From: a virus
Lineage: Duplodnaviria; Caudoviricetes
DNA: 59,799 nt
Strand: one strand, 5' to 3'
Virus record (IMG/VR): IMGVR_UViG_3300025687_000048
Span: 1-59,799 of that record
Below are positions 3,883 through 38,533 of this stretch, one piece after another. The notes beneath the pieces are model-generated. The model saw nothing but the letters and a program-made list of their open reading frames with translations, had not been told where the DNA came from and did no database searches. The position numbers and the translations under genes are program-made. Within the stretch, counting starts at the first letter, position 1, and the number at the start of each line of letters is the position of its first letter.

Positions 3883-4290
3883 TCAGTCTATCACCGCATC
3901 CAGCGCATCGGCCACGCGCCGCAGTCGCGTCCGATGCACCGCGTAGGTCGCTCCGCTGATCTTCACCATCGGGACGTTGGCCTCCTTCACGGCCACCAGT
4001 GCCTCTCGCCAGACCAGCTTCATCGAATCGCTGGCCGCACCATAGGGAACACTGAGGCGCACGTAGAGAGAGTCAGCGGGGTGAACCGAGAGCGTCACGC
4101 CAGCCGCCGCGAGGTCGGGATACTCCGACGCCATGACCGTCATGTAGGTCTGCACGTTGACGACCGAGCCGAGCGAGTCAGCCAGCGTGCGGAGACTGTC
4201 AATCTGCGACCGAACCGCGTCGAGTTGCTGCTGTGCCGTCTGCGCCGACAGAGGCATCGCCAGCGCGAAAATGAGAATGAGGTTACGCAT
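3883..4290 (-). CDS. Signal-peptide protein downstream of tail fibre (135 aa)
   Basis: MRNLILIFALAMPLSA|Q signal; GGAGG RBS. Confidence 0.75.
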   Translation of the reverse strand: MRNLILIFALAMPLSAQTAQQQLDAVRSQIDSLRTLADSLGSVVNVQTYMTVMASEYPDLAAAGVTLSVHPADSLYVRLSVPYGAASDSMKLVWREALVAVKEANVPMVKISGATYAVHRTRLRRVADALDAVID

Positions 4291-4303
4291 GGATGATCCT
4301 CCG

Positions 4304-7300
4304 TTAGAACGCAGTGCTGTTGTTGCTGGTGGCCTGTCCGGTGCCCGAGTTGTCGGTCGGCGCTCCGTCGAAGCGGTTGGCGTTATAGAGCACGTTCTCA
4401 CAGTTGGTGTCGATCAGCAATGGCCCGTTGGTGGGGTCTTTCACCGTGTTGCCGACGACCAGTGAATTGTCAGCCAGCCCGTCGAGATACATGGAGTAGC
4501 TGCCCGTCCCGTAGAACACATTTCCGAGGAAGTTGTTGGCAAATCCGTTCGTGTAGATACCGTAGACATCTGTGTCGTAGAACTTGCTGTTGCGGACCTG
4601 CACGTAGTTGCCGTTTTCGGCAATGAAGATGCCCTGATTGTCGCACCCGTAAACACTAATGTTGTCGATCTGCGTGAGGTAGCCGTTGGCCTGAATGTGG
4701 ATTCCGTTGTTCTGCTGCCCGCCGCCCGGTGTCGTGCGAACCACCAAATCGCGGATGGTCGCCGCTTGGCCCGTAGAGAGGTCAATGGCATGATCTGTGG
4801 TGCCTCCGTCGATCAGCGTGTAGGGGCGGGTGTGGTCGGTCCAGTTCGATCCCGACCCTCGGATGTTCATGTAGTCCACGGTGACATCGAAGGGCAGATA
4901 CGTGCCCGGCATGATGTGGACGCTGTTCACATTCGCGTTGCCGCCCGCGTCGATGGCGTCCTCGACATGCCAGAACAGCCCGTTTGCGCCAGTCGAATCG
5001 ACCACCACCTCTGCGCCCACCATCGGCTGCACGAACGGATAGCGCCGATGCTGCGCGAGGTCCGCCACCTTCGGGTCGGGCTGCACAACTTGGAAGGCCG
5101 TCGAGTCCGCAATCGCCAATCCGAACGAATCAGCCATCGCCCAGATGGCGACATCGCGGATCTTGGCACCCGGCGCGGGATAGACGCTGTGCGGAATCAG
5201 GTGCACGCCAACCTTGGCCCACACCTTTACACTGTCGGCGTCTGCCGTGGCGACCCAGTTTCCCCCGCCGGGGATCGTGGCGACGGCGACGACGTTGGAA
5301 TCGGGGAGCGTGGGATCGGACAGGGGGGCGTTCATGGAAGCGACGAAGGCCCTGTGCCGCTCCTTGGCGTCCTCTGCCGACCATTTCGACTTCTGCACGG
5401 TTAGCATGGCAAGCTGGCCGTCAAAGTGAAATCCAGCCGCGAGGTTGGTCGCACCGACATACGCCGTGTCGGCTTCCACTTGGTTTGTGCTGGCTGCGCT
5501 CACGTCGCTGGCGTGCAGTTCCCCATCGACATAAAGGTAGACCGCCCCGATGTCACGGTCGGCCACCATCACGTAGTCGTGCCACGCACCGTCATAGAGA
5601 TCCGTCGCACCCGCCGCGATGTCGGACGACTGAGCCGCGTCATCGACAAAAGCGTTCATGTGGCCGTCGCTGTCGAAGTAGGCACCCCATGAGTCCGCTG
5701 TGCCGTTGTCCGGCATATAGACGATCCACTGATTGCCTGACGGATTCGTCGCGGATGCAGACTTGGCAGAGAAGGCCAGCGTAACACTGTTCCCGCTGGT
5801 CGAGCCACCCATCGTGAAGCCGTCAACTTCAGTGGCCCACATTAACGAGCCCACGGTCGAACTGTAGGCGTTGGAGAACGGGATGCTGACCTGTCCGCGT
5901 AGGAAGCCGGGACTACCGACAGTCGTCAGGTCATTGCCGTAGACAGAGGCATCTACTGTGTCGTAAAGAGCCCACGCGCCGTGTGTGTCACCTTTCTCTG
6001 CCGGTCCCTGATAGTCGTCGTGGAAACGCACTTTGATCCCGTCGGTGTTGACGGACGGCTTCGTCTGCATGCCGTAGAGCCCATAATCCGACGCCAGAAG
6101 GATGTAGGGCGCGTTCTCAATGGAGCCGTGTTCGATGGCGGCGATGTCGGAATAGACCGCCGCGTCGGGCCACGCGAGGTCCTCTGATCCGCTTCCACCG
6201 TTGTAGATCGCCTCGTTGTTTTGCCAGCCGTCTGCGGTTACAGAGAAGATGCTGCGCCTATAGACAGCAACGTCGTCGGATGTGCCATCTCCTATAGCAA
6301 ACCACCCTCCCCCCGGTAGAAGCAGGGAGCCGTTCTCGTCAGCATCTCCACTCCAGATGTTGGCATCGTAGATGGCGTTAGCATGGGGATTGAACGTGCT
6401 GCTATGATTCTCCGTCGATACGTGCCACCACTGTGCCGGCCAATCCCCGTCCTTCAGCCCGAACGGATCGCGGATCGCGGAAACGGCGTTAATATCGTCG
6501 TCGATGGTCCCGATGTTGGTGACTGCGTAGACGCCAACCCCGTTGTTGCGCCCAGCGATGTCATCTTTGAACCGCTGAATCGTCGTCGTGTAAACCAAGT
6601 CGATTACGTCGCTGCGGTAGTCTGCAATCGTCAGGCCCCAACCGCCCGGCTGGCCCATATACAGCTTGCCGTCCAGCCGCCAGACGCTCCCCACTGCGTC
6701 ACCGACAGCCGCCCTATTGTCGTTGGTTGTGCCAGCGACCTTGTAGACCTGCCACGGCGTCGTCATCGTGCGGCGATCCCACACCGCAACGGTGTCCTGC
6801 CCCTCGCTGATCGTCACGCACCACTCGTCGGGCCAGTAGCCGTCCGATGCGACGTAGCTGTTGTCGGCCTGTTCGGCGCGAAATAGGTCGAGATCCCACA
6901 TCCAGTAGGGGTTATAGTCGCTGCCGCAGATGACCTTTCTCGCGCTGTAGGTCGTCTTAGTGCAGTCGGGGTAGGAGATATTGGTGGAGAGGGTGGTGCC
7001 CGTCGGCAATCCGGTGATCGCTGATCCATCGCCGGCCAGGGCGCCCGCCGTCAGTGTGCCGCTGACCGTTGCGGGGCCGATCACCGTCAGACTGTCGGTG
7101 TTCAGCGTGTCGACCGAGGCGTATTCGAGGTCGGTCTGCTGACCGGCAGGCTGCGTCAGGTGCCCGTTGACAGAGGCCGTCGATCCTACAGAGAACGCAC
7201 CAGAGACAGTGGCGTCACCGATGACTGTGAGACTGTCGGTGGACAGGGTGTCGACCGAGGCGTATTCGAGGTCAGTCTGCGCCCCCGCTGGCTGCGTGAC

Positions 7301-7900
7301 CTGTCCGTTGAACGTCGCCGTCGAGCCGACCGAGAAGGCTCCGGTCACCGTCCCATCGCCGGCTACGGTCATCGAGTCGGCGCGGACGGTGTCCATATCC
7401 GCGATACCGTGGATCGTCAATGTGGCACCGGGAAGGAACGTCGCCGGGCCACCCACCGTGAGGCTGTCGGTGTTGAAGGTGTCCGTGTTGGCGTACGAGT
7501 AGAACGCCCGCTTGCCAGCACTCACACCTGTCACGAAGCCGACGATCGGTGTTCCCCCGAGGTAGAGAGAGTCGACGTTGGCTCGCCCGATGTTGGCTAT
7601 GTGAAACTCGAGAGAGTCCTCCGCGGCCAGGGACGCGATCTTGTGTTTCGTGATGATCTGGCCGATGGATCGAGAGACGAGTGTGTCGTGAGCTCCGAAC
7701 ACCGTCTTCGTCGAGTCGCCCGGATGGAGCGCGATGAGATTGTTGACCCACCCAACCGTCTCAGATCGGTCGGCGTTGTAGTCGCTGGCGGTGAAGAGTT
7801 CTCCGGCAGAGTAGCTCTTCCGCGCACTGACAGACGACAGGGCCGACAGGCCCGTGGTTGTGGCGAGTAGGACTGAGAGGGCGAGTAGGTAGCGTCTCAT
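4304..7900 (-). CDS. Tail fibre/spike (1198 aa): signal peptide, beta repeats, LamG-like domain, C-terminal parallel beta-helix
   Basis: GAGGAG RBS before MRRYLLALSVLL; DGAWHDYVMV...LYVDG LamG pattern; IMPGTY and GIxI repeats of pectin-lyase-like helix. Confidence 0.8.
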   Translation of the reverse strand: MRRYLLALSVLLATTTGLSALSSVSARKSYSAGELFTASDYNADRSETVGWVNNLIALHPGDSTKTVFGAHDTLVSRSIGQIITKHKIASLAAEDSLEFHIANIGRANVDSLYLGGTPIVGFVTGVSAGKRAFYSYANTDTFNTDSLTVGGPATFLPGATLTIHGIADMDTVRADSMTVAGDGTVTGAFSVGSTATFNGQVTQPAGAQTDLEYASVDTLSTDSLTVIGDATVSGAFSVGSTASVNGHLTQPAGQQTDLEYASVDTLNTDSLTVIGPATVSGTLTAGALAGDGSAITGLPTGTTLSTNISYPDCTKTTYSARKVICGSDYNPYWMWDLDLFRAEQADNSYVASDGYWPDEWCVTISEGQDTVAVWDRRTMTTPWQVYKVAGTTNDNRAAVGDAVGSVWRLDGKLYMGQPGGWGLTIADYRSDVIDLVYTTTIQRFKDDIAGRNNGVGVYAVTNIGTIDDDINAVSAIRDPFGLKDGDWPAQWWHVSTENHSSTFNPHANAIYDANIWSGDADENGSLLLPGGGWFAIGDGTSDDVAVYRRSIFSVTADGWQNNEAIYNGGSGSEDLAWPDAAVYSDIAAIEHGSIENAPYILLASDYGLYGMQTKPSVNTDGIKVRFHDDYQGPAEKGDTHGAWALYDTVDASVYGNDLTTVGSPGFLRGQVSIPFSNAYSSTVGSLMWATEVDGFTMGGSTSGNSVTLAFSAKSASATNPSGNQWIVYMPDNGTADSWGAYFDSDGHMNAFVDDAAQSSDIAAGATDLYDGAWHDYVMVADRDIGAVYLYVDGELHASDVSAASTNQVEADTAYVGATNLAAGFHFDGQLAMLTVQKSKWSAEDAKERHRAFVASMNAPLSDPTLPDSNVVAVATIPGGGNWVATADADSVKVWAKVGVHLIPHSVYPAPGAKIRDVAIWAMADSFGLAIADSTAFQVVQPDPKVADLAQHRRYPFVQPMVGAEVVVDSTGANGLFWHVEDAIDAGGNANVNSVHIMPGTYLPFDVTVDYMNIRGSGSNWTDHTRPYTLIDGGTTDHAIDLSTGQAATIRDLVVRTTPGGGQQNNGIHIQANGYLTQIDNISVYGCDNQGIFIAENGNYVQVRNSKFYDTDVYGIYTNGFANNFLGNVFYGTGSYSMYLDGLADNSLVVGNTVKDPTNGPLLIDTNCENVLYNANRFDGAPTDNSGTGQATSNNSTAF
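7060..7490 (-). repeat. 47-aa (141-nt) tandem repeats in fibre shaft
   Basis: gtgtcgaccgaggcgtattcgaggtc at 7107 and 7248; TDLEYASVDTL.TDSLTVIG twice, plus degenerate copies. Confidence 0.9.
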
Positions 7901-7908
7901 GGCTCCTC

Positions 7909-8307
7909 TTACGTCAGCGTCGAGCGGATGTTGTCGCGGGTTTCCGCGAATCGTTTGACCACGTCCCGGATGGCCTTCGCTCCGCCGCCGAGAACGATGC
8001 CCGTAATCACCACGTCGACATCGACAACACCCTCCCCGATGGGAGAGACGTCGACCAGATCCTTCAGGTCGATGCCCAGTCCTTCGATCAGAGCCGTCAG
8101 GGAGAAGGAGTAGGCCACGAAGACACCGACGATCATGGCGATCCAGGGGCGGAACTCGAAGTGGGTGAACCACCGGGAACCGGCGCCGTCAGGCCCCCTC
8201 CCGAGGTAGTACTGATAGGCCCGAGTGCGGAAGATGACCTCCAGAGCGGCAGTCATCAGAGCAGAGACGAAAGCCAGCTGCGTGAAGGTGAGGACGACGT
8301 CGCCCAT
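7909..8307 (-). CDS. Putative holin (132 aa)
   Basis: 2-3 hydrophobic segments, ITGIVLGGGA motif, charged C-terminus; adjacent to the spanin-like gene. Confidence 0.65.
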   Translation of the reverse strand: MGDVVLTFTQLAFVSALMTAALEVIFRTRAYQYYLGRGPDGAGSRWFTHFEFRPWIAMIVGVFVAYSFSLTALIEGLGIDLKDLVDVSPIGEGVVDVDVVITGIVLGGGAKAIRDVVKRFAETRDNIRSTLT

Positions 8308-8308
8308 G

Positions 8309-8914
8309 TCAGGCCACCTTCCTCTTGCGAGCACCGACGAGGTAGGCGATCAGAGCGAGGATGACACTCACGATCCCGCCTCCCCCGAGGGCCTGCTCGA
8401 TGGGGATGTTCTCCCCCTGTAGAAGGGCGATGGTCGCCTGGGCCTGTCGCAGGCGTTCCTGCACGTCGACAGACCTGTCCTGTAGGGAGCGCACCCGTTC
8501 CTGGAACTCGCGCACGCGCTTCTCAAGGAGGGTCTCGCGTTCGCTGATGTCCTGTGTAGCGACGGGCGCATCGACGGGGCGATTGCGGAGTTCCTCGAGT
8601 TCAGCACTGGCCGCGGCGAGATCCTTCTCGGCGCCGGCCTTCTGCGCCCGGATCTTGGCCAGATGATGGCGGGTCGTCGTGAGGACTGCGTCCGTCTCGT
8701 TGAGGCGGGACGTCAGGGATGCGACGGTGCTGTTCAGATCACCGATCTGGCGCGAACTCTCAGAGGCGAGGCTCTGTGCCTTCGACTCGAAGGTTCGCGC
8801 TTCCTCTTTCTTGGCCTCGTACTGGGCTTGCAGCTCCCCGAGTCGGTCGTTGACCTGGGCAGACCCACAGCCAATGGAGAGCGTGAGGAGGACGGCGAGG
8901 GGCATGAACTTCAT
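8309..8914 (-). CDS. Lipoprotein with coiled coil and C-terminal TM (unimolecular spanin-like)
   Basis: MKFMPLAVLLTLSIG-C lipobox; C-terminal IVSVILALIAYLVG followed by RKRK. Confidence 0.7.
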   Translation of the reverse strand: MKFMPLAVLLTLSIGCGSAQVNDRLGELQAQYEAKKEEARTFESKAQSLASESSRQIGDLNSTVASLTSRLNETDAVLTTTRHHLAKIRAQKAGAEKDLAAASAELEELRNRPVDAPVATQDISERETLLEKRVREFQERVRSLQDRSVDVQERLRQAQATIALLQGENIPIEQALGGGGIVSVILALIAYLVGARKRKVA

Positions 8915-8932
8915 GGATGAGCCTCCCAGAAC

Positions 8933-8977
8933 GACAAAAGGCGCATGGTGGACGAATCCTACCATGCGCCTTTTGTC
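8933..8977 (-). terminator. Intrinsic terminator hairpin upstream of the lysis/fibre module
   Basis: 17-bp inverted repeat gacaaaaggcgcatggt/accatgcgccttttgtc with a UUCG-capped loop on the - strand. Confidence 0.8.
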
Positions 8978-9026
8978 TGATGTTTTGTTGTCGCCGGGAG
9001 GCTCTACCTACATCCCGGCAGCGTTG

Positions 9027-9055
9027 AATCTACTACTCCTGCAATACCTTTGCTA
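9027..9055 (-). promoter_or_regulatory. Sigma70-like promoter
   Basis: TAGCAA-17 bp-TAGATT on the - strand. Confidence 0.5.
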
Positions 9056-9056
9056 C

Positions 9057-12000
9057 CTACATGCTGGACACCTTCACCAGCCTCTGGTACGGGCTGTCCG
9101 CAGCGTCCAGCCGCTTGCGGAGTTCCTTGATTGTCTTCGAGCGCCATCTGGACGTGCCGGAGGTCACCAGTTTGCGATCCTTGGCCGGCAGGGACTGGAG
9201 GAGACCTCTCATCCCCCCGAACTCTTCGAGGAGGGCGTTCGCCTTCGCGTCGAGTTCGTCGGCCTTCTCTGTGTGTCCCATGCGCCGGTAGCCCTGAGCC
9301 TGTCCTCGGAACCGGGCCAGTAGCAGTCGACGGTCCTCCATCGACATCTCGGGGTCGAAGCCATCGGGCGCGATCGCGGCGCGGAGCTTGCCCTGCGCGT
9401 TCTCTATCTGACTGCGCAGCTTCGTCGCCTCCTCTTCGTCCATCGCCCCGCGTGCGACAGCCCTTCCCAGAGCCGCGTTGAAGCGGGTCAGCTGGTCGTC
9501 ACCGATCAGCGTGTTGCCCGATCGCTTCACGATCTCCCGAGCCGTCTTGGCAGGCGTCCATTCACGCGGAGCCTTAAGCATCTGGCGGAGCATCGGCACG
9601 GAGTTGATCTCAGGAACGTCCCCCTTGGAGAGGGTGCGACCCGTAGCGATGCTGTTGCCGATGAACTTGCCCAGGCCCGACCCGAACTGATCGAGGAAGT
9701 GGTCCACCATCTCCGGGTTGATGTCGACGGTGTAGGGCGCGTTGATGTAGACCTCCTTGCCGTCCCATGTCTCCCCGACCTCGCCTCCCGTCATGCGGTA
9801 GAGCCAGCGGGTGAACTCCTTGGACGGCTCTCTCACAGAAGAGAAGGCCAGCTGCTGGTTCGATTTGTCGTTGCCGTAGACGACCTCCTTGCGGAGCGGT
9901 CGACCGGCGAAGTCCTTGTTCTCCCACCACTGCACGAATGGATCGACGGCAGACGGGGCCAAGAACTGGTTGAATGAACCGCCCCCGAGGGGGTTGAAGG
10001 CGTCATCGAAGGATGAGAGCACGCGCCCGGCAAGCTCCGGCAGGGTCACGTTCTGCGGAGTCCACTGACGGTCCACGGCTCCCCCGGCGAGGTCTCCGAT
10101 CACCGAGTCGGCCAGCACGTTCCCGAGGACGTGGAAGACGTTGTAGCCCCACGGCAGCTTCCAGCTGACGAACTTGCCCTCACCAGTCGGGACGAGGAAG
10201 TAGTTGTCCTTCGTCCAGTCATCGGTGTCGTCCCAGTCTTCCGGGTCGATCAACCGGTTGGCGATGCTCTGGAGGAAGCTCAATCCCACCAGTCCCGCGG
10301 CGATTCCCCGGACCTTTGGATACTTCAGCAGGGCGTGGAAGATGCGGAACGAGCCCTGGATGCCGGCGTTCGAGAAGAGCCACAGGCTGTTGAGCAGCTG
10401 CCCCAGTTCGCCCTTCTTGTTGAAGTTGACCGTCAGTTCCTTGGCAGCTGCCGCAGCATCCTTCTTCGATACGCCCTCTTCCACCAAGGTCCGATAGGTC
10501 GCCAGTCGGATGCCCGACTCCACCATCTCGTTGACGTCTGCGATGTAGTCGACCACAGCTCGGCCCGCGTTGAGCAGGTTCGGCTTCGCCATGCGGCCCA
10601 TGCGCTTCTGGAGATCCTCGGCCTTCTCGTCCAGGGACGCGACGTCGTACCAGCCCGTCTTGCCTCCCATGTCCTTGAACTCTTGATACCACTCCGACCA
10701 CTCGTTGGATCGCCCGTCCCGGATGTTGCGCCAGATGCCCTTGTAGGCGCCCCCCTTGAGAACGCGACCAACCACCTTCGCAGCGATCGCCCCCGACCGC
10801 TCGCCGGCCAGATGGATGCCCGCCGTCTGAAGGTCTCGCTCGAGGTTGGTGAGGATGAACTCCGGGTTCCAGATCGTCGCCATGCCTCGGAGGAACGAGT
10901 TGACCCCGTTGAGCCACTTGATCCCTCGCTCCATCCCGAGGTTCTTCATGCCCGACGCCAGAGCCGGATCGTGGATCGTGATGACGTGCTTCTTCCCGTC
11001 GACCCACGTCGAGAGGACGTTGTCGGCGTCCCGCACCTTCGGGTCCATGAACAGCAGGTTGCCGTCTTGGTCGTAGCGCGGGAGAAAGGTCTGCACCTGG
11101 GCCTCCCATGACTCGGACGGATGTAACTCGACGAGGTTCAGGAAGTGCTGGCCCACCTTGTTCTTCTCCGCGGCGATGATCGCCTCGGTGTGATCCGCGA
11201 TGGCCTGCGTGAAGGGGTTGTCCGCGACGGATCGACGCCCGTAGGCGCTGCGGATGCCGCGGCTCGGCACACTGAACCCCTTGCCCGTCACCGGGTGGTT
11301 CTCTGTGCCCGCCTTGCCCTTCAGGGGGACGTATCGCTCGAACTGGCCACGGAGACCGTCATACGCCTCCTGCGTCAGGAAGCCGGCCTCGAAGCGGAGA
11401 CGGAGCGTCTCCCGCGTCACACGGTCAAGGAACTCGTCAGCCAAGGACTGGGCCGCGAGGTTGTCGCCGTAGCGAGCGAGGATCTCGTCGGCCTCCTCGT
11501 CTGTCATACCGGACCCGCCGTCCTCGAAGTCAGGGTTCTTCGTGGCGATGTGCGCGTTGCGCTCCTTCGCGTGGCCTGCGTAGAGCAGCCAGCCCATATC
11601 GTCGATCGACAGGTCAGCCTCGACGGCACGCTTCAGGAAGTCTTCCTCCAGCCACTTGTCGAACTGCTCGATCTGCTCCGAGGCGCGACCGATGAACAGA
11701 GTGGCCTCGCGGTAGGTCTTGGCGTCCTCCTCGACATCCCCGATGATGTCCTCGACCTGCTCGAGGCGGTTGAGTTTGTCCTGCACGTAGCGACGGATCA
11801 GCTGGGAGGTCTTCTCCGGGGGAATCTCCAGGGGACGGTGGATGACCACGTCGCCATCCTCCTCCTCTGCGATGTGCCCCGGGGGGACTGCCTCGCGGAA
11901 CTGAGAGGAGTTCTCCATGCGGGAGATGATCTCCTCGACCTTCGCCTCTCCGAGCTTCTCGCGCAGCTGCGCTCCGCTGATCTTCGCGGCGCCGGGCTGG

Positions 12001-25730: not shown

Positions 25731-26965
25731 TGGATGCGGCTCCTCACGAAGGCTTCGGCTTCCTTGCGGGTGAAGGCAGCGTTGGTCTCGGGGTTCTTCT
25801 TCTTCATCAGCGACAGGATCGCCCGCTCGATGGGACTGACGTTCTCGGGGATCGTGTCGGAGACGTTGGAATCACCGATGTCTACATAGTGTGTATCGGG
25901 CCTGCGTGTCTCTGGCAAGGCCAAAGAGTCGGGGAGGTTCCGCTGCGGCAGGGCGTTGGGGTTCTCGTCAGCCACCGCGGCCCCGGTCCCCGGAGGCGTG
26001 CCAGTCGCACCGCTCTGCTGCTGTTGACGGGCCAGGAACTGCTGCTGTTCCGGGGATAGGTTGCCGCCCGCAGCTGCGAGCATCGACGTCGTCTGCTGGG
26101 CGTTCTGCTGGGCGCCCTGCACGAAGTCGTCAGCGAAGGACTGTGGCGGCTCGTAGGGATCGCGGTAGTCCTTCAGGAGATCGCCCTTCTCCTCGGGCTG
26201 GAACCCTCCGTTGATGAGGGCGATGTTGCGCTGCTGGTGATCGTCCTCTCGGGACTGGAGGGTGCGGGAGAAGTAGCCGAACACCGGACCTGTCGTGATC
26301 TTGTTGTCCGCAGCGAACTCGACAAGCTCGCGCCAAGGTGTCCCGCCGCGCACCATTTCGATGAAGCGACTCTCCGCCTGTTCCCTGGCTTCGGTCTCCT
26401 GTCTCTCAGACTTGGTCGATTTGGCGATGCTCAGGTGCTGCTCGGCCCGTTCCACCAGCAGCTGGCGGTTCTCGTCTCCCTCCGGGAACATCTCCTCGAC
26501 GGATCTCTGGAAGGCGCTCAGTTCCGCCGCCTTCGCCTCCGGGTCGTCGATGTCGAGGATGTTGGTCAGCTTCGCATCGAACCCCTCGCGGAGCTTGCGC
26601 GAGAACTCGGTCTGGTACCGCTGCTCTCGCGTGTTGGCCGTCTCGGTGTAGGAGCCTCCGGGCAGGTTGTTCTCCGCCCGGTAGGCGTCGATGCCCTCAC
26701 CAGCGGCCCGGGCGCCCTCGAAGTCTCCGGCGTCGACGAGGTCGTTGAAGCGGTCGATCTCCCCTTGGAAGTTCGTGCGGTCCAGTTCCTGCCGATGGCG
26801 TGTGTCCCGATCGGCCATCCGCATCTGTTCCTGGTAGCGCATCTTGCCGAAATCCTCGGCAAATGCCTGCCGCTTCTCGTCCTTCTTTCGACGTCGATCG
26901 AGGTTGCGATCGACCCCCGCGAGGAGACCCGTCGCCGCGGCCATCGCCAGCATGTTGCGTCCCAT
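25727..26965 (-). CDS. Putative internal virion/ejection protein (412 aa)
   Basis: Helical and Q/E-rich; lies between the other ejection-type genes. Confidence 0.6.
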   Translation of the reverse strand: MGRNMLAMAAATGLLAGVDRNLDRRRKKDEKRQAFAEDFGKMRYQEQMRMADRDTRHRQELDRTNFQGEIDRFNDLVDAGDFEGARAAGEGIDAYRAENNLPGGSYTETANTREQRYQTEFSRKLREGFDAKLTNILDIDDPEAKAAELSAFQRSVEEMFPEGDENRQLLVERAEQHLSIAKSTKSERQETEAREQAESRFIEMVRGGTPWRELVEFAADNKITTGPVFGYFSRTLQSREDDHQQRNIALINGGFQPEEKGDLLKDYRDPYEPPQSFADDFVQGAQQNAQQTTSMLAAAGGNLSPEQQQFLARQQQQSGATGTPPGTGAAVADENPNALPQRNLPDSLALPETRRPDTHYVDIGDSNVSDTIPENVSPIERAILSLMKKKNPETNAAFTRKEAEAFVRSRIQ

Positions 26966-26970
26966 CCGTC

Positions 26971-29900: not shown

Positions 29901-31311
29901 GGAAGAAGGCGTCGATGTCGATGTTGCCTTCGGCGTCGACGAAGTTCTCGTAGGGGACGTCCAGACCCAGATCATCGAAGGAGACAGAGCGCAGCTGGTG
30001 GTATCCTTCGTATCGCCGCTGCTCCCACTCGAAGAGTGCCGTGCGGTGGGCCTCGTCGAGGTTCATGCCCTTCTCTTGCAGGTCGAGTTCTCGACCCTGA
30101 ATCCGCGCCTGGAACTCCTGCGTGCCCTCGACGTGCATCATCACCGGGTTGCCATCGGCGTCGAGCATGGCTTGCCCTGTGTTCGGATCGGTCATCACGC
30201 GATCATAGCCGACGCGCTGGCGTTCCATCCACTCGCGCTCGTCCTCGATCTTCTCCTGCGCCCCCATGACATACCGCTTCTCCCCGCTCTCGGGGTCGGT
30301 ATACCAGAAACCCGCCTCCATCATCTGGTCGAACTGCTGCTTGTCGTTCTGGAGCACCCACGGAAGTTCGTTGGTCCCGTAGATGTGGTTGCCGTCCTCG
30401 TCGTCGAAGCCGAATACGGCCTTGTCGCGGTGCTGCTGCTCCCACAACTGCATCTTCGCTGCGAGGGTCGGCGTGCCGTCGTTGAGTTCTCCGCTCAGTC
30501 CCGCCTCGTCCAGCTGGAGTCGCCACTTGTCCAGCGTGTCGACCGACAGGCCGGTGTCGGGGTCGATGAAGGTTCCGGTAGCGGAGGCACGCGCCAGGGC
30601 ATCGGTGATTCCCTGCGACGTCTTGTCGAGGTCGAACTGCGACCCCCCGAGCGTGCGCACCGTCGTCCCGTCGAGGGTGAGATCGCCCGTGCGGTCAGCC
30701 ACACCAAACGCCTTCTCGATCGCCAGCTTCTGTGCTTCCAGCGTCATCTTGTCGTCGAGGCGACCGGTGAGTTCCGCCTCCTTGATGCGCTGATCCAAGT
30801 CGAGCAGCTTCTGGTCGAGGGTCTTCTGGTCTCCGAACTGCCCGGTGATCTCCGACTGGCGGGCCGCTTCGTCGAACTCCTGCCCGCGGAGCTTCGAGTA
30901 GTTGTCGACGGCCTGCTGTCCGACGTCCTGACTGAGCTTGATGTTCTCGCGCTCGGACTCGTCCTGAAGACGCAGCTGCTCCAGCGTCAGTGGGACAGTG
31001 ACGTTGTCCGCGATCTGCGATTCCGTGTCCGCGAAGTCCTGCTCCAGACGTGCCCCGAGCCGGCCCGAGTCGAACTGTCCCCTGGCTCGCAACTGGTCGC
31101 GCAGCTGCTTCTGTCGCTGCTCCGCGGCGTCGAGATAGGGCTTCGTGTAGTGATCCTTGATCTCGTCGAAGCGACCATCCGAGTAGACAGAGCCTTGATA
31201 GAGCCTCTGGAGCGCCGTGTTCTGGGCCGCGGACAGGTTGGGGGCGACGGAGGCGAGCTTCTTCTTGTGCTTCTCCAGATCGTAGTTCCACCCCGTGTTG
31301 CTGGTAGCCAT
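26971..31311 (-). CDS. Putative internal virion/ejection protein (1446 aa) with internal repeats
   Basis: xxTG...TL and V.GTQ.F repeats; follows the nozzle gene as in podoviruses. Confidence 0.65.
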   Translation of the reverse strand: MATSNTGWNYDLEKHKKKLASVAPNLSAAQNTALQRLYQGSVYSDGRFDEIKDHYTKPYLDAAEQRQKQLRDQLRARGQFDSGRLGARLEQDFADTESQIADNVTVPLTLEQLRLQDESERENIKLSQDVGQQAVDNYSKLRGQEFDEAARQSEITGQFGDQKTLDQKLLDLDQRIKEAELTGRLDDKMTLEAQKLAIEKAFGVADRTGDLTLDGTTVRTLGGSQFDLDKTSQGITDALARASATGTFIDPDTGLSVDTLDKWRLQLDEAGLSGELNDGTPTLAAKMQLWEQQHRDKAVFGFDDEDGNHIYGTNELPWVLQNDKQQFDQMMEAGFWYTDPESGEKRYVMGAQEKIEDEREWMERQRVGYDRVMTDPNTGQAMLDADGNPVMMHVEGTQEFQARIQGRELDLQEKGMNLDEAHRTALFEWEQRRYEGYHQLRSVSFDDLGLDVPYENFVDAEGNIDIDAFFQWADGEGAEAGDRLKAAIGRDPTMEDLTALLRGKPVAIRDENGAPVVDWVPGTAGLEQAKLDLQETLQQNGFEHDTAERIANENYQDKLREGYWSRDQKTGEWNFVMGTQDWESHILTLQNQLGIDRDEATWRLEEKTRTGYEEVVEFPPGSGSYVRRYVAGTQTFEERMQNKRDALVRQGWSHDAAMQQARIEADQMQTWGGFRTVMTPSGPRTEWVAGDQEHSESLLELQQEFEREGWAHEDAVEAARYIRSMSVQDKGYLQQTYMTERKWHYENVEGMSPEEAEAAASADWEGVADTFGEPLQMALERLRLEGRKELFDAESAVQFQAALLTSGLTIGGDLLTDFLMPDEDGESLFNDLTSAFLTNHGSGEGGKLTAEDVVSIAQARGITLTHEQVKKLLPAFNISENSDAASALRSNMDWGLPQGEVAFTPAKLGITALVTYGTYRGVKALVNQPMGVGAAAVDQESATGQIDTLYNSLSKEGQAKLMEAMHAEFSSTPTGDNEDQAWSEGDFSGYVANFATDRGGEHGTDMERTNAHWGVHFASLRDRFLRQEEYNTKRNWGTFRTLLDGATFTKAPGEMTIQEERMVMDIWERMPGSARGDGVGFEDVLNDVRAFGEAIGAKSSEEMVDEWEEIAPILSKTPDQMTRAERSRIDSVYEQMGFATMDGLFQELGTVERYDKSSGDVRNVNDSGNVGRAGRSDYSWNDWATVVRNGHGEITRLEEIDGQLYAVIEGNDRLQDIRGNIDTHDKGAIRIGSAAELDQKFGSDDELLRAFERNLLGEETIEDRAKVLQSLNVNDSFWEEIGVEPPPPGYAETMAGLTGEDSVVETVDPPPPPAEEEPPPEDDDPPPAEEAPPPPPVAEEPPPPVETGGTPEDYETRVASGELVRLDNGGEWVYRHSVTGANVAVVPKGDVEIQPTTFAEAGLPSNIGAEIAMGIVEQLDNGGTWVFRKNGNIIGEVEKDVFNRLR

Positions 31312-31312
31312 C

Positions 31313-32947
31313 TCAGGTATTCCCTCGGAATCGCATCGACCTGTCTTTCGACAGCCAGATCGAAGAGTTCACGACGTGCGGTCGATCTTCGTTGTTCTCA
31401 ATCAGTGAGCACTGGAAGTACCGGCTCTTCGCGTTGATGTTCCATTCGTTCCCGTCGCCATCGGTCCCTCGGGCAATCCGCAGACCTCCGGGGCTCTCCG
31501 CAGCCAGCACGGACTGGTCGAAGAAGAACGAGACCGACAGGGCGCTCCCAGCCACGCCCATTGCGATGTCAGCCTGTGAGAGGGTGGGATCTTCTTCGAG
31601 TCCGATGATCTGGACATCGAAGTATTTGCCGTTGTAGGCGAGGATGTCCCACCAGATTTCGCGCAGACGGCTCAACCCCTCGTAGCCCAGGTTCAGCAGG
31701 CCGGTCTTCAGTTCCGACTGAACCGCCGCGCCGTCTGTCCCGCCGTCGAGGTAGCCTGCCGAGTTGTTGTTGTCCCCCCATGCCTCTGCGAGCATGGAGT
31801 CGTATCCGCCAAGGATCGTCGTGTGGTCGTTGTTGGCGTCTCGGTAGGTGATTCCGCGGGAGAACTTGATCGCCCCGGAGGGCGAGTCGAAGATGCTGAA
31901 GGCTCCAAGCTCCGTCTGGAGCACGATGTACTTGTTGTGCTGCGTCTCGCCGGCTGTGGTGACGTGGAAGATGATCTCGTTCCAGGGCTCTCCCCGCTCG
32001 AAGGCGGTGATGTGCTGGATGCGCTCCTTGTTCAGCTGCCCCCAGAAGTCCTCAATCGGGGCGGAGATGTATTCCGCCTTCTGCTGCGGATTCGAGATCA
32101 TGTAGATTCCGTCGTCGTAGACGAAGTAGGTGCGTCCCTTGCTGTGGACGACGCCCTCCTTGGCCGCAAGACCGACCGTCTCATCCGTGGGGAAGAACGC
32201 GAAGCTCTCTCCAGCTTCCGGGATGAAGCGCATGTGGTGGATGCTGTGCCGGTGGAAGACGAGCAGGGCCTGCTCTCCGTGGAGTGACAGGGCCATCCCG
32301 TGCGACCGCCTCGAGCAGTGCTGGATGTTGCGAGCATCCCAGTTGTCGAGGACGCCGTTGTTCGGCCCCCATTCGAGCGCCGTGGGACCGTTGTCTTGAT
32401 CGCCGCCGCTGGTGTTCAGGCAGACGACGTAGTCGTAGAAGACGGCGATGTCCTGAGCGGTCGACGGGGCATCCACCACGTTCTGCATCCACGGGACGAA
32501 GGTGTCCGTGCCTGGGACGCACTTGGCGATCGGGTTTGTGCCGTCCGTCGCCAGCAGGTAGAGATTGCTCCCTTGGTTGTATTGTTCGAAGCGAATCCCA
32601 TTCTCGGCGCCACTGGCGAAGGTGGCGGCACCCGTCAGATCCGTTGGTGTGGTCCCGTCGATGTACTTGATCGACCCACCCGCGGCGGCGATGAGGTATC
32701 TCGCCGTTTGCGAGTCCCACTCGAACAGACCGTTGATCGGATTGCTGCCGTTGATCGCGGAGGAGATGTGTTCCTTCCACCCCTCGCGCTTCTGAAGGCG
32801 CCCTCGCCCCACCAGATGGTAGTTCCGGCACCGGGCAAGGAAGCCGGACTGGAACTTCTCGTCGGTGAGACCCTCCGTAGAGTCCTCCCCCCGGAAGCCG
32901 TATCCCCGGCGCGGGAACCTGAACGGTCTCCGGCGAGGGCCGGCCAT
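31313..32947 (-). CDS. Tail nozzle / tubular protein B (P22 gp10-like beta-propeller)
   Basis: 544 aa, beta-rich; GRLQKREG near N-terminus and KSRYFQ near C-terminus; follows the adaptor. Confidence 0.7.
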   Translation of the reverse strand: MAGPRRRPFRFPRRGYGFRGEDSTEGLTDEKFQSGFLARCRNYHLVGRGRLQKREGWKEHISSAINGSNPINGLFEWDSQTARYLIAAAGGSIKYIDGTTPTDLTGAATFASGAENGIRFEQYNQGSNLYLLATDGTNPIAKCVPGTDTFVPWMQNVVDAPSTAQDIAVFYDYVVCLNTSGGDQDNGPTALEWGPNNGVLDNWDARNIQHCSRRSHGMALSLHGEQALLVFHRHSIHHMRFIPEAGESFAFFPTDETVGLAAKEGVVHSKGRTYFVYDDGIYMISNPQQKAEYISAPIEDFWGQLNKERIQHITAFERGEPWNEIIFHVTTAGETQHNKYIVLQTELGAFSIFDSPSGAIKFSRGITYRDANNDHTTILGGYDSMLAEAWGDNNNSAGYLDGGTDGAAVQSELKTGLLNLGYEGLSRLREIWWDILAYNGKYFDVQIIGLEEDPTLSQADIAMGVAGSALSVSFFFDQSVLAAESPGGLRIARGTDGDGNEWNINAKSRYFQCSLIENNEDRPHVVNSSIWLSKDRSMRFRGNT

Positions 32948-33699
32948 CAGTAGTCTCCCTGCGTGTACTCGCTGTAGCCGCGAGAGGACAGTTGGTCGTA
33001 GTCCTCGATGGCCCACGTCGGGCGGAAGGCGGCGTGCGCCTCACCGAGGTCCAGTTGCGTGTCCATCTCCGGGAGCCAGACCTGACGCCAGTGCGCCAGT
33101 TTCATCTGCTCGCGGTCGTCCTCTTCCTGGTAGGCCCCGTAGGCGAGAGACGCCTCGACGGCGTGCGGGCGGAACATATCCGGCAACAGGAGGACGTTGT
33201 CGTCGTCTGACGTATCCTCGCTGACCGTGCAGTAGAAGTAGATGCTCGGGTAGTCGTCGATGAACTCCTGAGACGGCTTCCGGGCCACCCACAGCTGCCG
33301 TCCTACGCGGCAGATGAACTTGGGCCTGCCATTGGCTGTAGCGGCGTCCTTCCACTGCGGCCCGAGGTTGGTGTCGATGGAGCGGGCGCCGAAGGGCGCC
33401 CACTCCAGCTTCTGGTTGTCGCTTCCGTATCTCATCCCCCGCGTGTCGATCCGGTCGATGGCCGTGCCGTCACGTCCCCCGCTCGTCTGAATCGGGTTGC
33501 TCGCCGTCGCCGCCATGTTGTAGGCATAGACCCCCGCGGACAGGCTCAGGGTGCAGTAGTCCCGCAGCCACGGCCATGCTCCGTGAGCCGCGATGATGGA
33601 CAGACCACCCCGTGCCCACCGTCGAGCGGTCGCCTCCTCGTCCGAGGAGTGCAGCCCGCCGAGCGCCTCGACGTCGTCGATGAGATCCTGAAAGGTCAC
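32947..33699 (-). CDS. Head-tail adaptor / tubular protein A (250 aa)
   Basis: GTG start MTFQDLIDDV; WPWLR...LSAGVYAY and GRPKF patterns; gene position. Confidence 0.65.
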   Translation of the reverse strand: MTFQDLIDDVEALGGLHSSDEEATARRWARGGLSIIAAHGAWPWLRDYCTLSLSAGVYAYNMAATASNPIQTSGGRDGTAIDRIDTRGMRYGSDNQKLEWAPFGARSIDTNLGPQWKDAATANGRPKFICRVGRQLWVARKPSQEFIDDYPSIYFYCTVSEDTSDDDNVLLLPDMFRPHAVEASLAYGAYQEEDDREQMKLAHWRQVWLPEMDTQLDLGEAHAAFRPTWAIEDYDQLSSRGYSEYTQGDY

Positions 33700-33700
33700 C

Positions 33701-34195
33701 CTACTCGCCAGCCTGTCCGTTGGTGCTGGCGACGTGGTTCTCGACGTCCTGCTTCGAGATCGTGCCGTCCTCGCCGGATGGCGTGACATCGGCCAGGGAC
33801 ACCCCGAGTTCCTCCGCCAGCTTCCGGGCGTGGTGCGATGCCTTGACCTCGTCCTCCGTTGCCGGGGGTTCCTCCGAGGTCTGCTTGGCCGCGTCCTCCG
33901 GCTTGATGAGACCGAAGCCGACGAGCGTCTCGACGACCGTCGACTGGACGACCCCCTTGAGAACCTCCAGCTGCTGCCGGTTGAGGATGTCGTATCGGAT
34001 CTGGAACAGGGTCTGCTGACGGTTGTACTGCTCGCAGATGGCCTCCGCGATGCGCAGAGGCACAAACTCCAGCCTCGCTCCGCCGAAGTCTTCCCGCGGC
34101 GGGAAGGAGAGACGCGGAACACCCGGCTTGGAGATGTTGGGGTTGTGACCGTCAGGACCGAGATACTCGAGCGGTGCTTCTCCGCTGAAGTTCAT
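33701..34195 (-). CDS. Protein with C-terminal E3-binding (PSBD) domain
   Basis: VKASHHARKLAEELGVSLADVTPSGEDGTISKQDV. Confidence 0.8.
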   Translation of the reverse strand: MNFSGEAPLEYLGPDGHNPNISKPGVPRLSFPPREDFGGARLEFVPLRIAEAICEQYNRQQTLFQIRYDILNRQQLEVLKGVVQSTVVETLVGFGLIKPEDAAKQTSEEPPATEDEVKASHHARKLAEELGVSLADVTPSGEDGTISKQDVENHVASTNGQAGE

Positions 34196-34225
34196 GGCGT
34201 CCTTGTGAGGCTCAGGTGGTAGGAA

Positions 34226-34256
34226 TGGGCCGGGAGAGACGTGCCCTCCCGGCCCA
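34226..34256 (-). terminator. GC-rich hairpin after the capsid/decoration genes
   Basis: tgggccgggag...ctcccggccca inverted repeat; weak U tract. Confidence 0.5.
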
Positions 34257-34261
34257 CGGGT

Positions 34262-34825
34262 TCATCGAGGCAGCGGGTTGTAGCTCCAGCCCGCGATCAC
34301 GGTGGAGATTACCGTGTCCGCGGCGCCGCCCGCCGTCTCGATCTTCAGCCGTCCGAAGCGTGCAGACCCGATTCGGGCCATGTCATACGCTCCGACGTCG
34401 GAGGTATCCGCGAACGGATGGAACACCGTCTTGTAGCCGGTGAAATCCGCCGAGGACGCCGTCGAGAACACCGGTTCGACCGACACCCAGTTCAGCTTGT
34501 CGATCGACACCTGGAGAGAACAGATGACCGACTGAGTTCCGCCTGCCGTGCCCTGGCGCTGGTCCACATCCCAGTAGAACGAGAGGGTGCGCAGGTTGGC
34601 GAGCGTGATCTCGGTGGTCGTCGTGTCCTTCCCGGCAGTACCGATGATCGTGTCGAGCTCGGTCCCGACAGTGGTCAGACCGTCGCCGTTCGACCAGTTG
34701 AGCGTGTCGGCGTAGGTCCGCGTGCCAGAATCGAGGTCGGTGCTTCGCAGCTTGGCGTCGGCGTCCGTCACCGCCCCGAGGGCGACGATGAACGCCAGAG
34801 CCAGACCGCAGAGGATGCGCTTCAT
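34262..34825 (-). CDS. Signal-peptide protein right after the major capsid gene (decoration-like, 187 aa)
   Basis: GAGGAGG RBS; MKRILCGLALAFIVALGAVTDADA|K; LQVSIDKLNW beta-sandwich-like motif. Confidence 0.75.
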   Translation of the reverse strand: MKRILCGLALAFIVALGAVTDADAKLRSTDLDSGTRTYADTLNWSNGDGLTTVGTELDTIIGTAGKDTTTTEITLANLRTLSFYWDVDQRQGTAGGTQSVICSLQVSIDKLNWVSVEPVFSTASSADFTGYKTVFHPFADTSDVGAYDMARIGSARFGRLKIETAGGAADTVISTVIAGWSYNPLPR

Positions 34826-34845
34826 CTCTCTCCTCCTCGCCCCCA

Positions 34846-35946
34846 TTAGGAGGCGAACTCGTCGCGCTCGGCAAAGACGACCCACTCCGCCGACGACTGG
34901 TTGAGGGTGGTGGAGTCGTCCGAGGCGTCCCAGTCGCACCGGGAGGCACCCCAGACCTGACGAATCGCCCGACCCCAGCGATCGCCGTAGGCGTTCTCCG
35001 AGCGGGGCACGATCCGGGGTTCGCTGCCGAAGACGGCGGCGATGGCGTCGGCGCCGAGCACCATGAGGCGCTCCTTGTCGGCGTCACCCGTCAGCGTGCG
35101 GGTCCGCATGTACTCGTGGACGTACATGTTGTGGTAGTGGCCCACCGCGCCGGAGATCAGCGGGTTGTCGCTACCGCGGTCGTTCGAGCCCTGGTGCTGC
35201 TTGAAGTCCGGGTCGGCGTCCAGGTTGTTGCAGCTGTAGACCGAGCCGAGGAGCGCGTAGCACTGCTTCGCGCCCATCTTGATCGGGTTCAGCTTCTTCT
35301 CCAGACAGAAGGCCCGGATGCGGCGGATCTCGTTGTGGTTCAGGACGTCGGTGTTGCCGATCGACCCGTTGTCCAGCGCACCGTTCGCCCGGTAGAGGTT
35401 CGGATGCGCCGTCGAACTGACCGCCGCCACCGACTGCTGGGCGAAGTACGGCGCCGACTCCAGCAGCGTGTCGATCATCGCCTCTTCGATGTTCTCGACG
35501 AGCCACTCGCGCAGCCCCTGCTCGGAGTCGCCCTCGAGGTCGATCGAGGACCGGTGGTTGTACAGATCCGGCGTGTCGTGGCCGACCGCGTTCTTCAGCA
35601 GCGCGAGCCAGACCGCCATGTCGTCGTACGTCATCCGCTGCTCGTTGCCGAGCAGCGAAGCGTTGCCGTACGTGTTGCTGTCGGTGCGGGGGGTGTTGGT
35701 GAGCTGCTTCCGCATCCGCATACGCACCTGCTCACCCGGCGCCTTCCCGAGCTCGTCTTTGACGATGATCGGGACACCCGGACGCCTGCGGTGAGACTGC
35801 TCACCGCCCTCGTCCTTGGCCTGGAGCCCGTGCTCATTGAACCACGTCAGGTCTTGGACCTCGACGTGCTCAGTGCGGGACCAGGCAATTTCTGCCAGGG
35901 GATCGGACGCGCCAATCGGATAGGGAAGGCTATCGAACTCAGCCAT
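34846..35946 (-). CDS. Major capsid protein (N4-gp56/DUF4043-like)
   Basis: ELGKAPGEQVRM...LLGNEQRM...NPLISGAVG...LGADA pattern; follows the scaffold. Confidence 0.85.
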   Translation of the reverse strand: MAEFDSLPYPIGASDPLAEIAWSRTEHVEVQDLTWFNEHGLQAKDEGGEQSHRRRPGVPIIVKDELGKAPGEQVRMRMRKQLTNTPRTDSNTYGNASLLGNEQRMTYDDMAVWLALLKNAVGHDTPDLYNHRSSIDLEGDSEQGLREWLVENIEEAMIDTLLESAPYFAQQSVAAVSSTAHPNLYRANGALDNGSIGNTDVLNHNEIRRIRAFCLEKKLNPIKMGAKQCYALLGSVYSCNNLDADPDFKQHQGSNDRGSDNPLISGAVGHYHNMYVHEYMRTRTLTGDADKERLMVLGADAIAAVFGSEPRIVPRSENAYGDRWGRAIRQVWGASRCDWDASDDSTTLNQSSAEWVVFAERDEFAS

Positions 35947-35990
35947 CGGTTTCCTCTCAGCCTGTTATCAGCGATCCCCGCACCACGCGC

Positions 35991-36917: not shown

Positions 36918-37089
36918 TCTGAGCCTTCCATCCGAGCCGTCTACCGCGGTTCGGGGTCGCCCGCAGGCGAGCCTCCGCGGTTCCGTTCACTGTTCAGGTC
37001 TGGCAGGGGCGTTTCCCCTCCAAACTGCTCCCTGGCTTGCCGGGCCTCGATCATGTGTGTGGCGTGTCTCTCCATCATGGTTGCGGTTT

Positions 37090-37608
37090 TCAGTAGCTGG
37101 CGATGTCGCCCTTCTGCTGTTTCAGTTCGTAGTCGAGCTTGGCGCCACCCATCGCGCCGAAGAGGCGGTCTCGGTCTGTGGCGCGTGCGACGGCCTCCAC
37201 GGCGTCTCGGTGGAGGTCGGCGGGCTGCACGATCCGGCCTCGCCAGTCCGTGCGCATGTCGGTGTAGGGCGGGATGAGCGCGATCGGCACGTCTTTGAAG
37301 CGGACAGCGATGTGGTGCGGGGGAATCCCGTCCCTCTCCTGCGTTGTCCAGTTGACGGTAGCGGCCCAGCCGCCGAATCGACCGGTGAACACACCGACGT
37401 CCCGCTGCTTGTTCTCCTGCTCGATCGTCATGGACTGGTCGAGGTAGAGCCTGCGGCGCTTCAGGGCAGGGGAGGTCTGGAGGATGGCCTGGAGGACGTC
37501 CGCACAGAGTCGGTTGAGAGGACGAGGCTTGCGGTATTCGTGCTCGTTCTCCTCCGTGACCATCGTCGCCGGATTGTCAGGCGACCGGTTCACCAGCATG
37601 GTCGACAT
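37090..37608 (-). CDS. Hypothetical protein (172 aa)
   Basis: ATG overlaps the upstream stop. Confidence 0.6.
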   Translation of the reverse strand: MSTMLVNRSPDNPATMVTEENEHEYRKPRPLNRLCADVLQAILQTSPALKRRRLYLDQSMTIEQENKQRDVGVFTGRFGGWAATVNWTTQERDGIPPHHIAVRFKDVPIALIPPYTDMRTDWRGRIVQPADLHRDAVEAVARATDRDRLFGAMGGAKLDYELKQQKGDIASY

Positions 37609-37772
37609 CAGCAGCAGCCCCCCTTCTTCGTGGTCTTCTTGGGACTCACGTTGGGGTTGCCGGGGCCGCGCTTGACCGACTGGTGGAAGGGCATCCGCCC
37701 CATGTTCTGCGACTCTTCCTGCGAGCAGACCTTCACGTTCTGTCCCTTGAACGAGGACTTGCCCTTGTGCAT
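37608..37772 (-). CDS. Small basic protein (54 aa)
   Basis: MHKGKSS...KKTTKKGGCC; coupled to both neighbours. Confidence 0.55.
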   Translation of the reverse strand: MHKGKSSFKGQNVKVCSQEESQNMGRMPFHQSVKRGPGNPNVSPKKTTKKGGCC

Positions 37773-38533
37773 CAGTATGCCCTCCGTCGACCGATGAGTG
37801 TGGCTGAGATGCTCTGGTCGACGGCGCCTCCCTTGGCCACCACGGCGATCGCACTCTTCTGTGGGAGTTGCTTGCCAATTGCCCACTGGTGCGGTTCACC
37901 ACCGTTGGCGATCGTGCCGCTGACGATCACGTCGTAGTCGGCACTGAAAGACCAGAAGGGGCCTGTCTGCGGGTAGAGGCGGAGTTCGTACGAGGTCGAG
38001 TTGCCGCCGCCGTTGTTCTCGATGATGAAGTAGTCCAGGACCGGTCTGTCGGGTTTGCCAAAGACGACGAGGGCCTGTGGTTCCCAGAAGACGCCCGCGG
38101 CGATCGTCCCCAGCTGCACAGCCGATCCCTTGGTGTGGAACACCTTGAACGTGCCGGCCATCGTGGAGTCGAGGTAGGCGGATTCATACCAGTGGATCGC
38201 AGAGTCGGTGACGGCGGTGTCGCCGCCCGCGATGGCCAGCTGCTGTTCGATGCGCCTGCCGCTGACAGAGAGGCCCGTCACGGTGACGTAGGCCGTGTCG
38301 GTGACCGTTCCCGCTGACGTCGTGTCGTGTGCGACGTAGATGACCGAGTCCTTGGCCGTCGCCGCGAACTGCGCATCCCCGGTGACAAGCTCGAACGAGC
38401 CGTCGATGTCGGTGTCGGTGACGTGGATGTAGAACCCGTCACCGGAGGACGCTCCGGCGCCCGGGTTGTAGTTGAGCGGCTCTGCGAAGGAAGCGCCCGC
38501 AAGGAGGGCGATCAGTGCGATGTAGCGGATCAT
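37772..38533 (-). CDS. Signal-peptide, beta-rich protein right after the portal (253 aa)
   Basis: MIRYIALIALLAGASFA|E; ATGA overlap with the portal stop. Confidence 0.78.
   Translation of the reverse strand: MIRYIALIALLAGASFAEPLNYNPGAGASSGDGFYIHVTDTDIDGSFELVTGDAQFAATAKDSVIYVAHDTTSAGTVTDTAYVTVTGLSVSGRRIEQQLAIAGGDTAVTDSAIHWYESAYLDSTMAGTFKVFHTKGSAVQLGTIAAGVFWEPQALVVFGKPDRPVLDYFIIENNGGGNSTSYELRLYPQTGPFWSFSADYDVIVSGTIANGGEPHQWAIGKQLPQKSAIAVVAKGGAVDQSISATLIGRRRAY

Follow-up and report, generated by a model that had tools for sequence, protein, structure and literature searches.

In the 59,799-bp window analysed here, a single contig (~64% GC) that makes up the whole of IMG/VR virus record IMGVR_UViG_3300025687_000048 (G000), the tail-fibre-type protein (1198 amino acids; 4304..7900, minus strand) and two proteins of the head module, one encoded directly after the capsid gene (famA, 187 amino acids; 34262..34825, minus strand) and one directly after the portal gene (famB, 253 amino acids; 37772..38533, minus strand), begin with N-termini that look like signals of the Sec/signal-peptidase-I type. 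As all three always begin with such a secretion signal, in the window and in the relatives collected, the sequences suggest that these proteins are exported from the cytoplasm, and the signals appear to be ancient in this phage group. Textbook assembly of tailed phages takes place wholly in the cytoplasm. We tentatively propose, with somewhat less than even confidence, that across a whole clade of tailed phages virion assembly may be divided between two compartments, at least where the fibre is concerned; the case is best for the fibre and less strong for famA and famB.

All signal calls come from our own rule-based heuristic and the reading of alignments, not from SignalP. The strict rule, which replaced a first, looser heuristic that had flagged 12 of the 55 called window genes, requires a basic n-region, a hydrophobic core of 10 or more uncharged residues, and a small-x-small cleavage site. 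It is passed by four of the 55 genes, namely the fibre, famA, famB and a lipoprotein gene at 8309-8914, the last being a fifth envelope signal that was absent from the preliminary description of this DNA. That description had listed four genes with signal-like N-termini; the fibre and the post-capsid and post-portal genes stood, and its remaining member, the 135-residue protein encoded directly downstream of the fibre gene (3883..4290, minus strand), fails. Its short Sec-like signal is the weakest of the four because of the leucine at -3, the sole point on which it fails. As a control, the strict rule flags 2 of 150 capsid homologues, and within the window the portal, capsid, scaffold, adaptor, nozzle-like and large internal proteins are all rule-negative, which agrees with the earlier statement that such proteins have no signal.

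The N-termini quoted previously for the four minus-strand genes match the translations exactly, and their starts hold as described. A ribosome-binding site (RBS) precedes each of them (GGAGG at 7 nucleotides, AGGA at 3, AGGAGG at 6 and AGGAG at 7), the famB ATG overlaps the portal stop codon (ATGA), and each start is the first ATG within the part of its frame that has a high GC content at third codon positions (GC3). The true starts are not downstream of the hydrophobic stretch, a placement that would have taken the signals away, and the next in-frame starts have no RBS. Internal starts yielding signal-less isoforms were likewise rejected, having no RBS and entailing the loss of the conserved N-terminal module.

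In the relatives, which are metagenomic fragments and for which starts were picked by the RBS rule, the signals proved to be conserved: the strict rule is passed by 21/21 famA copies, 7/7 complete famB N-termini and 4/4 fibres. No signal-less homologue was found among the relatives of these three families, and the signals are kept while their sequence drifts.

The fibre carries its Sec-like signal in front of a conserved N-terminal module of ~200 residues, followed by Laminin_G_3 (PF13385, 1e-09) and right-handed beta-helix (PF13229, Beta_helix, 1.8e-07) domains; the window copy has no PHROG match. Two homologues, P0008 and P0009, likewise have a signal at the N-terminus. Residues 1-420 of the window fibre, the part used for the search, are 55% identical to P0008, and P0009 shares the distal part only, behind a different short N-terminus. 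The fibre of the related genome G001 was found by reading open reading frames, having been missed by a genome search with the whole window fibre. Its signal and first ~200 residues align with those of the window fibre (33% over 212 columns, E 3e-13) and nothing beyond them does, the body instead containing Peptidase_S74 (2.5e-06), an intramolecular chaperone domain, and matching the PHROG families of tail fibres phrog_9942 (6.4e-17) and phrog_14572. This N-terminal module on a canonical tail-fibre body strengthens the label of tail fibre that 4304-7900 had been given, and a signal-bearing N-terminal module on exchangeable distal bodies is the usual architecture of receptor-binding proteins and their style of module swapping. 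Conserved cysteine residues are present in the window copy and in the homologue comparison. No other fibre-like gene is present in the window, which is probably complete, and the remaining large late proteins are helix-rich or polyvalent. The fibre gene is placed after the internal-protein genes, as is the fibre gene of T7, and it adjoins holin-like and spanin-like genes. A C-terminal sorting domain of the type IX secretion system was considered for the fibre and none was seen, as judged by eye. For the downstream neighbour at 3883-4290, there was no Pfam or PHROG match, no usable Atlas match and no G001 counterpart; our guess is that it might be a co-exported partner or chaperone of the fibre, or a receptor blocker.

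The famA protein combines a signal peptide with a modelled jelly-roll or beta-sandwich domain and occupies the slot of a cement protein, in the gene order capsid, famA, small gene, SU10-like adaptor. A database search with famA yielded one homologue, P0006, with 39% identity and a signal of its own. The capsid alignment from a representative search retrieved 2 viral loci, 1 locus from a Gemmatimonadaceae metagenome-assembled genome (MAG) and 17 metagenome loci (2 duplicates); famA was detected by BLAST in 14 of the 18 loci examined and by reading open reading frames in three more (L002, L007, L018), with too little sequence after the capsid gene in L017 to judge. L027, which belongs to a second MAG from that phylum, has one more copy, with a signal by eye. 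In a distant capsid clade, 27-35% identical to the window capsid, famA again follows the capsid gene (L028, L029, L031, L032-35 and L036; hmmsearch E 1e-19 to 1e-26), with N-termini that look signal-like by eye. In total, famA lies directly after the capsid gene in 27/27 famA-bearing loci including the window, P0006 being uncounted as it has no genomic context. The N-termini of all 22 copies in the alignment and L027 end in (A/V)-x-(A/G). When viral and metagenome contigs were scanned with one protein at a time (the portal, P0006) or with a two-sequence famA alignment, there were no matches, nor did a search with capsid alignment A7 return any.

The structure model of famA (m51f8a5e15128; predicted local distance difference test score, pLDDT, 70.4) consists of a separate N-terminal helix (residues 3-26) and a jelly-roll, which matches XepA (Z 8.8-8.9), the KHP40 cement protein (8.6), YomS (8.2) and the KHP30 and Pam1 cement proteins (7.8), as well as viral capsid jelly-rolls and TNF-like lectins. 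The label of decoration protein proposed earlier for the post-capsid gene is backed by synteny and a compatible fold only. Two further observations on this family were made by eye or from its loci: tandem famA copies, both with a signal, occur in L020 (678-1842), L023 (320-1498) and L029 (5145-6385), and in 6 of the 22 copies (alignment A4 plus L027, by eye) cleavage would leave Gln at +1, a feature that resembles the 'Q rule' of Bacteroidetes and could point to hosts from this superphylum.

Most relatives of the famB protein are ~475-496 amino acids long and contain an inserted ConA-like domain resembling residues ~635-820 of the fibre. A database search with famB found the window's own protein only, and the gene follows the portal gene in L001, L003, L008, L015 and L016. 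In addition to the complete N-termini that pass the rule, L029 has a famB signal by eye; the 5' end of the gene is cut in L009, L011 and L028, and in L027 just the end of the signal is visible. The structure model (pLDDT 48.9) was too poor for a fold search. A relationship between famA and famB was rejected, since the profile comparison aligned the signal region only and their mature parts are therefore unrelated. At the other end of famB, 7/7 C-termini in alignment A5 close with a basic tail resembling G-[RK]-R-x-x-[RK] after the last beta-strand.

The signal-bearing genes look like members of the late operon. GC3 of the four genes is 0.78-0.85, like that of their neighbours, the spacers after the capsid, holin-like and fibre genes are 8-20 nucleotides, and famB is translationally coupled to the portal gene. 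A scan for consensus patterns, which for promoters covered the sigma-70 type only and may not fit the host, showed no promoter and no intrinsic terminator beside the post-capsid and post-portal genes. A promoter and terminator of their own and a deviant composition, by which a moron is recognised, are therefore features that these genes do not display, and the earlier concern that they could be expressed by the lysogen is not borne out.

The probable lysis genes lie upstream of the fibre gene. The 201-residue lipoprotein (8309..8914, minus strand) has the lipobox LSIGC, followed by a long helical middle and, at the C-terminus, a transmembrane segment, and the adjoining 132-residue holin candidate (7909..8307, minus strand) has three predicted transmembrane segments, no Pfam or PHROG family match and 44% identity to G001 43128-43538. 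The position of the pair, directly after the giant open reading frame, is conserved in G001 (42526-43538), where the equally placed analogue of the lipoprotein also has 201 residues, a lipobox (LVGC) and a transmembrane segment at the C-terminus; BLAST shows no similarity between this analogue and 8309-8914. As lipobox, C-terminal transmembrane segment and adjoining holin candidate, the marks of a unimolecular spanin, are found in both genomes, we read the pair from its sequence features as a unimolecular-spanin-like protein and a holin candidate; the helical middle, with Rz-like helices, sets it apart from T1 gp11. Spanin-like and holin-like genes point to a diderm host with a periplasm that is lysed from within, and the window is best described as a temperate podophage of such a host, possibly one of the Gemmatimonadota. 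A perfect hairpin with a 19-bp stem at 8933-8977, between the giant open reading frame and the lipoprotein gene, is likely a terminator or attenuator dividing the internal-protein genes from the lysis/fibre cluster.

Under two-compartment assembly, the fibre, the jelly-roll protein in the cement slot and the lectin-type head-module protein would be made as Sec pre-proteins together with the products of the late structural genes, exported to the periplasm, cut there by signal peptidase I at (A/V)-x-(A/G) and folded, while DNA-filled particles without fibres would be built in the cytoplasm. Opening of the inner membrane by the holin would bring the two pools together, no later than the breakage of the outer membrane by the spanin-like lipoprotein, and the fibres, and probably the head proteins, would attach to the particles at that point. 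The periplasmic pool might also act from inside ahead of lysis, stripping or masking the receptor glycan. With regard to the fibre, export and late addition of the particle's receptor binder is the simplest interpretation of the sequences; membership of famA and famB in the virion is suggested by synteny and a compatible modelled fold. As to what export might be good for, we can speculate that calcium- or disulfide-dependent domains of extracellular type, such as the cysteine-bearing fibre might have, are folded in the periplasm, that receptors are stripped from within before release, or that glycan-active domains are kept out of the cytoplasm.

Several points weigh against this proposal. We know of no tailed phage that exports parts of its virion. 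Docking after lysis would suffer from dilution. L030 and L039 have no famA, the small protein and the adaptor following directly on the capsid gene there, so that the family is dispensable for the capsid; famB is relocated in G001, to an upstream position at 12562-14052. Lys or Arg soon after the cleavage site can hinder Sec export, and 7 of the 22 famA copies, by eye, have such a residue within 3 positions after the site. The fold match of famA is generic, as many jelly-rolls tie at Z 7-9 and values of Z <8 are common, and a search of the famA profile against the PDB matched no solved cement protein and neither 6i56 nor 6i5o. The host assignment is weak as well, coming from 2 of 168 genomes of one phylum, both on small binned MAG contigs. 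Our literature search, in the portions of the sources that were available, yielded no paper that describes Sec signals for the fibres or decoration proteins of tailed phages, and the GP4 cement protein gp1 is described in the available text as traced from Ala2 of 157 residues (PMC9698820), which means that it has no signal.

The three proteins could also be exported without ever joining the particle, acting late on the envelope of the infected cell, for instance by binding or depolymerising glycans, so that receptors are removed or covered, progeny protected and superinfection blocked, or as lysis helpers like XepA, while the particle uses another, unrecognised receptor binder. We consider this rather unlikely, although a precedent exists: XepA, the top fold match of famA, is a late exported jelly-roll protein that the available text reports as absent from particles (PMC6834076), which counts against virion membership of famA and keeps this alternative alive. 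The canonical tail-fibre body with its intramolecular chaperone domain in G001 and the lack of any other fibre-like gene in a probably complete genome speak against a fibre that acts on the envelope, even if its gene adjoins the holin-like and spanin-like genes and if, as the available text on Lambda Lom describes (PMC12309495), a signal-bearing protein may be encoded among tail genes. All three families carry or resemble glycan-binding folds, and the absence of famA from two loci would suit an accessory role in the envelope; an accessory gene acting on the envelope would not be expected to keep a fixed place directly behind the capsid gene in all of its loci, as famA does.

It is improbable that the hydrophobic N-termini have nothing to do with export, being instead kept, or cut by a phage protease, and perhaps serving as transient tethers to the inner membrane or as assembly timers in an assembly that remains wholly cytoplasmic. 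Four unrelated proteins have the full tripartite Sec pattern, with a basic start, a core of 10-15 residues and (A/V)-x-(A/G), and the length of the cores is insufficient for stable anchoring in a membrane. The modelled separate helix at the famA N-terminus would fit any of these roles, and for Porphyromonas phages the available text suggests that the prohead protease takes off the signals predicted on capsid proteins (PMC10367356); here, scans of part of the gene set turned up no such protease. It is highly improbable that the genes serve lysogenic conversion as morons, with surface or periplasmic proteins of the lysogen expressed from the prophage, because the missing flanking consensus of the sigma-70-type scan, the coupling to the portal gene, the neighbour-like GC3 and the conservation of the families across capsid clades at 27-55% identity outweigh the presence of an integrase and the Lom-type precedents.

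The ends of the contig form a diverged direct repeat, in which 1-677 is 94% identical to 57007-57683 and 1503-3188 is 90% identical to 58089-59777, so that the contig wraps a unit of ~57 kb and its gene set is probably complete. The middle of the repeat is swapped between the two ends (678-1502 versus 57684-58088), and the assembly seems, from its sequence, to wrap the genome via two strain variants differing in a small accessory cassette beside the integrase. Two genes in the repeat (1712-3187 and 58299-59777, both minus strand) encode products of 491 and 492 amino acids that are 95% identical, each with a metallophosphoesterase body (phrog_20266) and a weak helix-turn-helix-like N-terminus. 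A probable full-length integrase (56365..57489, plus strand; 374 amino acids) takes its family call from a partial diverged copy at 3-482 (phrog_1 at 6e-22). Searches of cultured phages with the portal and the fibre found no relative, and the capsid protein had just two distant matches. The post-capsid 'structural protein' of Paracoccus phage KLEP18-1 was considered as a counterpart of famA and rejected, as it has no signal and no profile similarity to famA.

The major capsid protein (34846..35946, minus strand; PF13252, phrog_334) gives profile matches to the solved capsid proteins of GP4 (8h89, 1.9e-28), A1002 (26de/44ny, 3.9e-27), Pam1 (7eel, 7.3e-19) and KHP30/KHP40 (~5e-06). The P22-like portal (38530..40698, minus strand; PF16510 8.1e-31, phrog_156), the SU10-like adaptor (32947..33699, minus strand; PF24175 7.1e-09), which is homologous to G001 24383-25096, and the nozzle-like virion structural protein (31313..32947, minus strand; phrog_3287 8.5e-23), which is 36% identical to G001 25096-26718, are further structural proteins of the window, and the large terminase subunit is at 43772..45448 (minus strand; phrog_979, phrog_2). 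The small protein between famA and the adaptor (33701..34195, minus strand) has a peripheral-subunit-binding domain (E3_binding, PF02817 2.9e-11), which is unusual in a head-tail joining region; its counterparts, by eye, come after famA, or straight after the capsid gene in L030 and L039. Two helix-rich charged proteins of 1446 and 412 amino acids (25727..31311, minus strand), for which there were no family or PDB matches, are read from their composition as internal or ejection proteins and not as fibres. No sequence match was found in the PDB for the fibre, the 1446-residue protein or the nozzle-like protein. The giant open reading frame encodes a polyvalent protein of 5557 amino acids (9057..25730, minus strand) with the Pfam domains ResIII/SNF2/AAA_34 (helicase), ART-PolyVal, PBECR5 (nuclease) and LPD38, which is presumably packaged and injected; its G001 counterpart has 3276 amino acids and weak similarity.

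The second gene downstream of the fibre gene (3418-3807, minus strand) encodes a stand-alone PAS-domain protein of 129 amino acids (PF08447 3.5e-11), and the next (3209-3421) a tail-anchored coiled-coil protein of 70 amino acids. The sole endolysin candidate seen is a 206-residue protein (47030-47650, minus strand) that by eye resembles a zinc peptidase of the D-Ala-D-Ala type, with a weak PHROG 'peptidase' match (3.9e-04). In G001, a 123-residue protein (10061-10432; L004) opens with the twin-arginine-like motif RRSVLKG and may for that reason be a phage protein exported by the twin-arginine translocation (Tat) route.

If the N-termini do direct export, then either virion assembly is split across the inner membrane or exported envelope factors have arisen from the fibre gene and the genes next to the capsid gene; each outcome would be new and can be tested. 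This bears on the annotation of receptor-binding proteins in metagenomic phages, where signal-based filters that drop secreted proteins as 'non-structural' could mislead.

The closest known systems to famA are the cement proteins GP4 gp1, A1002 gp49, KHP30/KHP40 gp15 and Pam1 gp6, which like famA are small beta-sandwich proteins encoded beside a homologous capsid gene. In GP4, A1002 and KHP30, according to the available texts, the gene for a trimeric cement protein adjoins the capsid gene (PMC9698820, PMC13730344), and A1002 is described there as having an SU10-like adaptor as well (PMC13730344), a neighbourhood that the window shares with these cement-protein podophages. They differ from famA in that the known members have no signal, the KHP40 chain aligning from residue 5, and no sequence similarity to famA was detected, the fold match being unspecific. 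PBSX XepA and SPbeta YomS share with famA the jelly-roll domain and are late phage proteins exported beyond the membrane. XepA, however, is pentameric, is encoded in the lysis cassette of a defective prophage from a Gram-positive host and, according to the available text, does not occur in particles (PMC6834076), whereas famA lies between the capsid and adaptor genes and resembles XepA in fold class only, with no sequence match.

Among tail and receptor-binding genes, signal-bearing phage genes have precedents in Bor, T5 Llp and Cor. Lambda Lom is likewise signal-bearing and encoded among tail genes, according to the available text (PMC12309495). Proteins of the Lom type are small outer-membrane proteins or lipoproteins that act as morons or in exclusion, whereas here a 1198-residue fibre and conserved late genes are involved, with no separate transcription units seen. 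For Porphyromonas gingivalis phages, the available text describes predicted signal peptidase I signals, some of which expose an N-terminal Gln as 6 of the 22 famA copies would; these genes are read there as host-modifying factors, and that text mentions no signals on fibres or on a capsid-adjacent family (PMC10367356). Sec-exported endolysins of the fOg44 type and spanins, as far as the available descriptions go, are likewise late proteins that take the host Sec or lipoprotein route, and they differ in being lysis proteins, whereas the signals described here stand on a fibre and on proteins of the capsid module.

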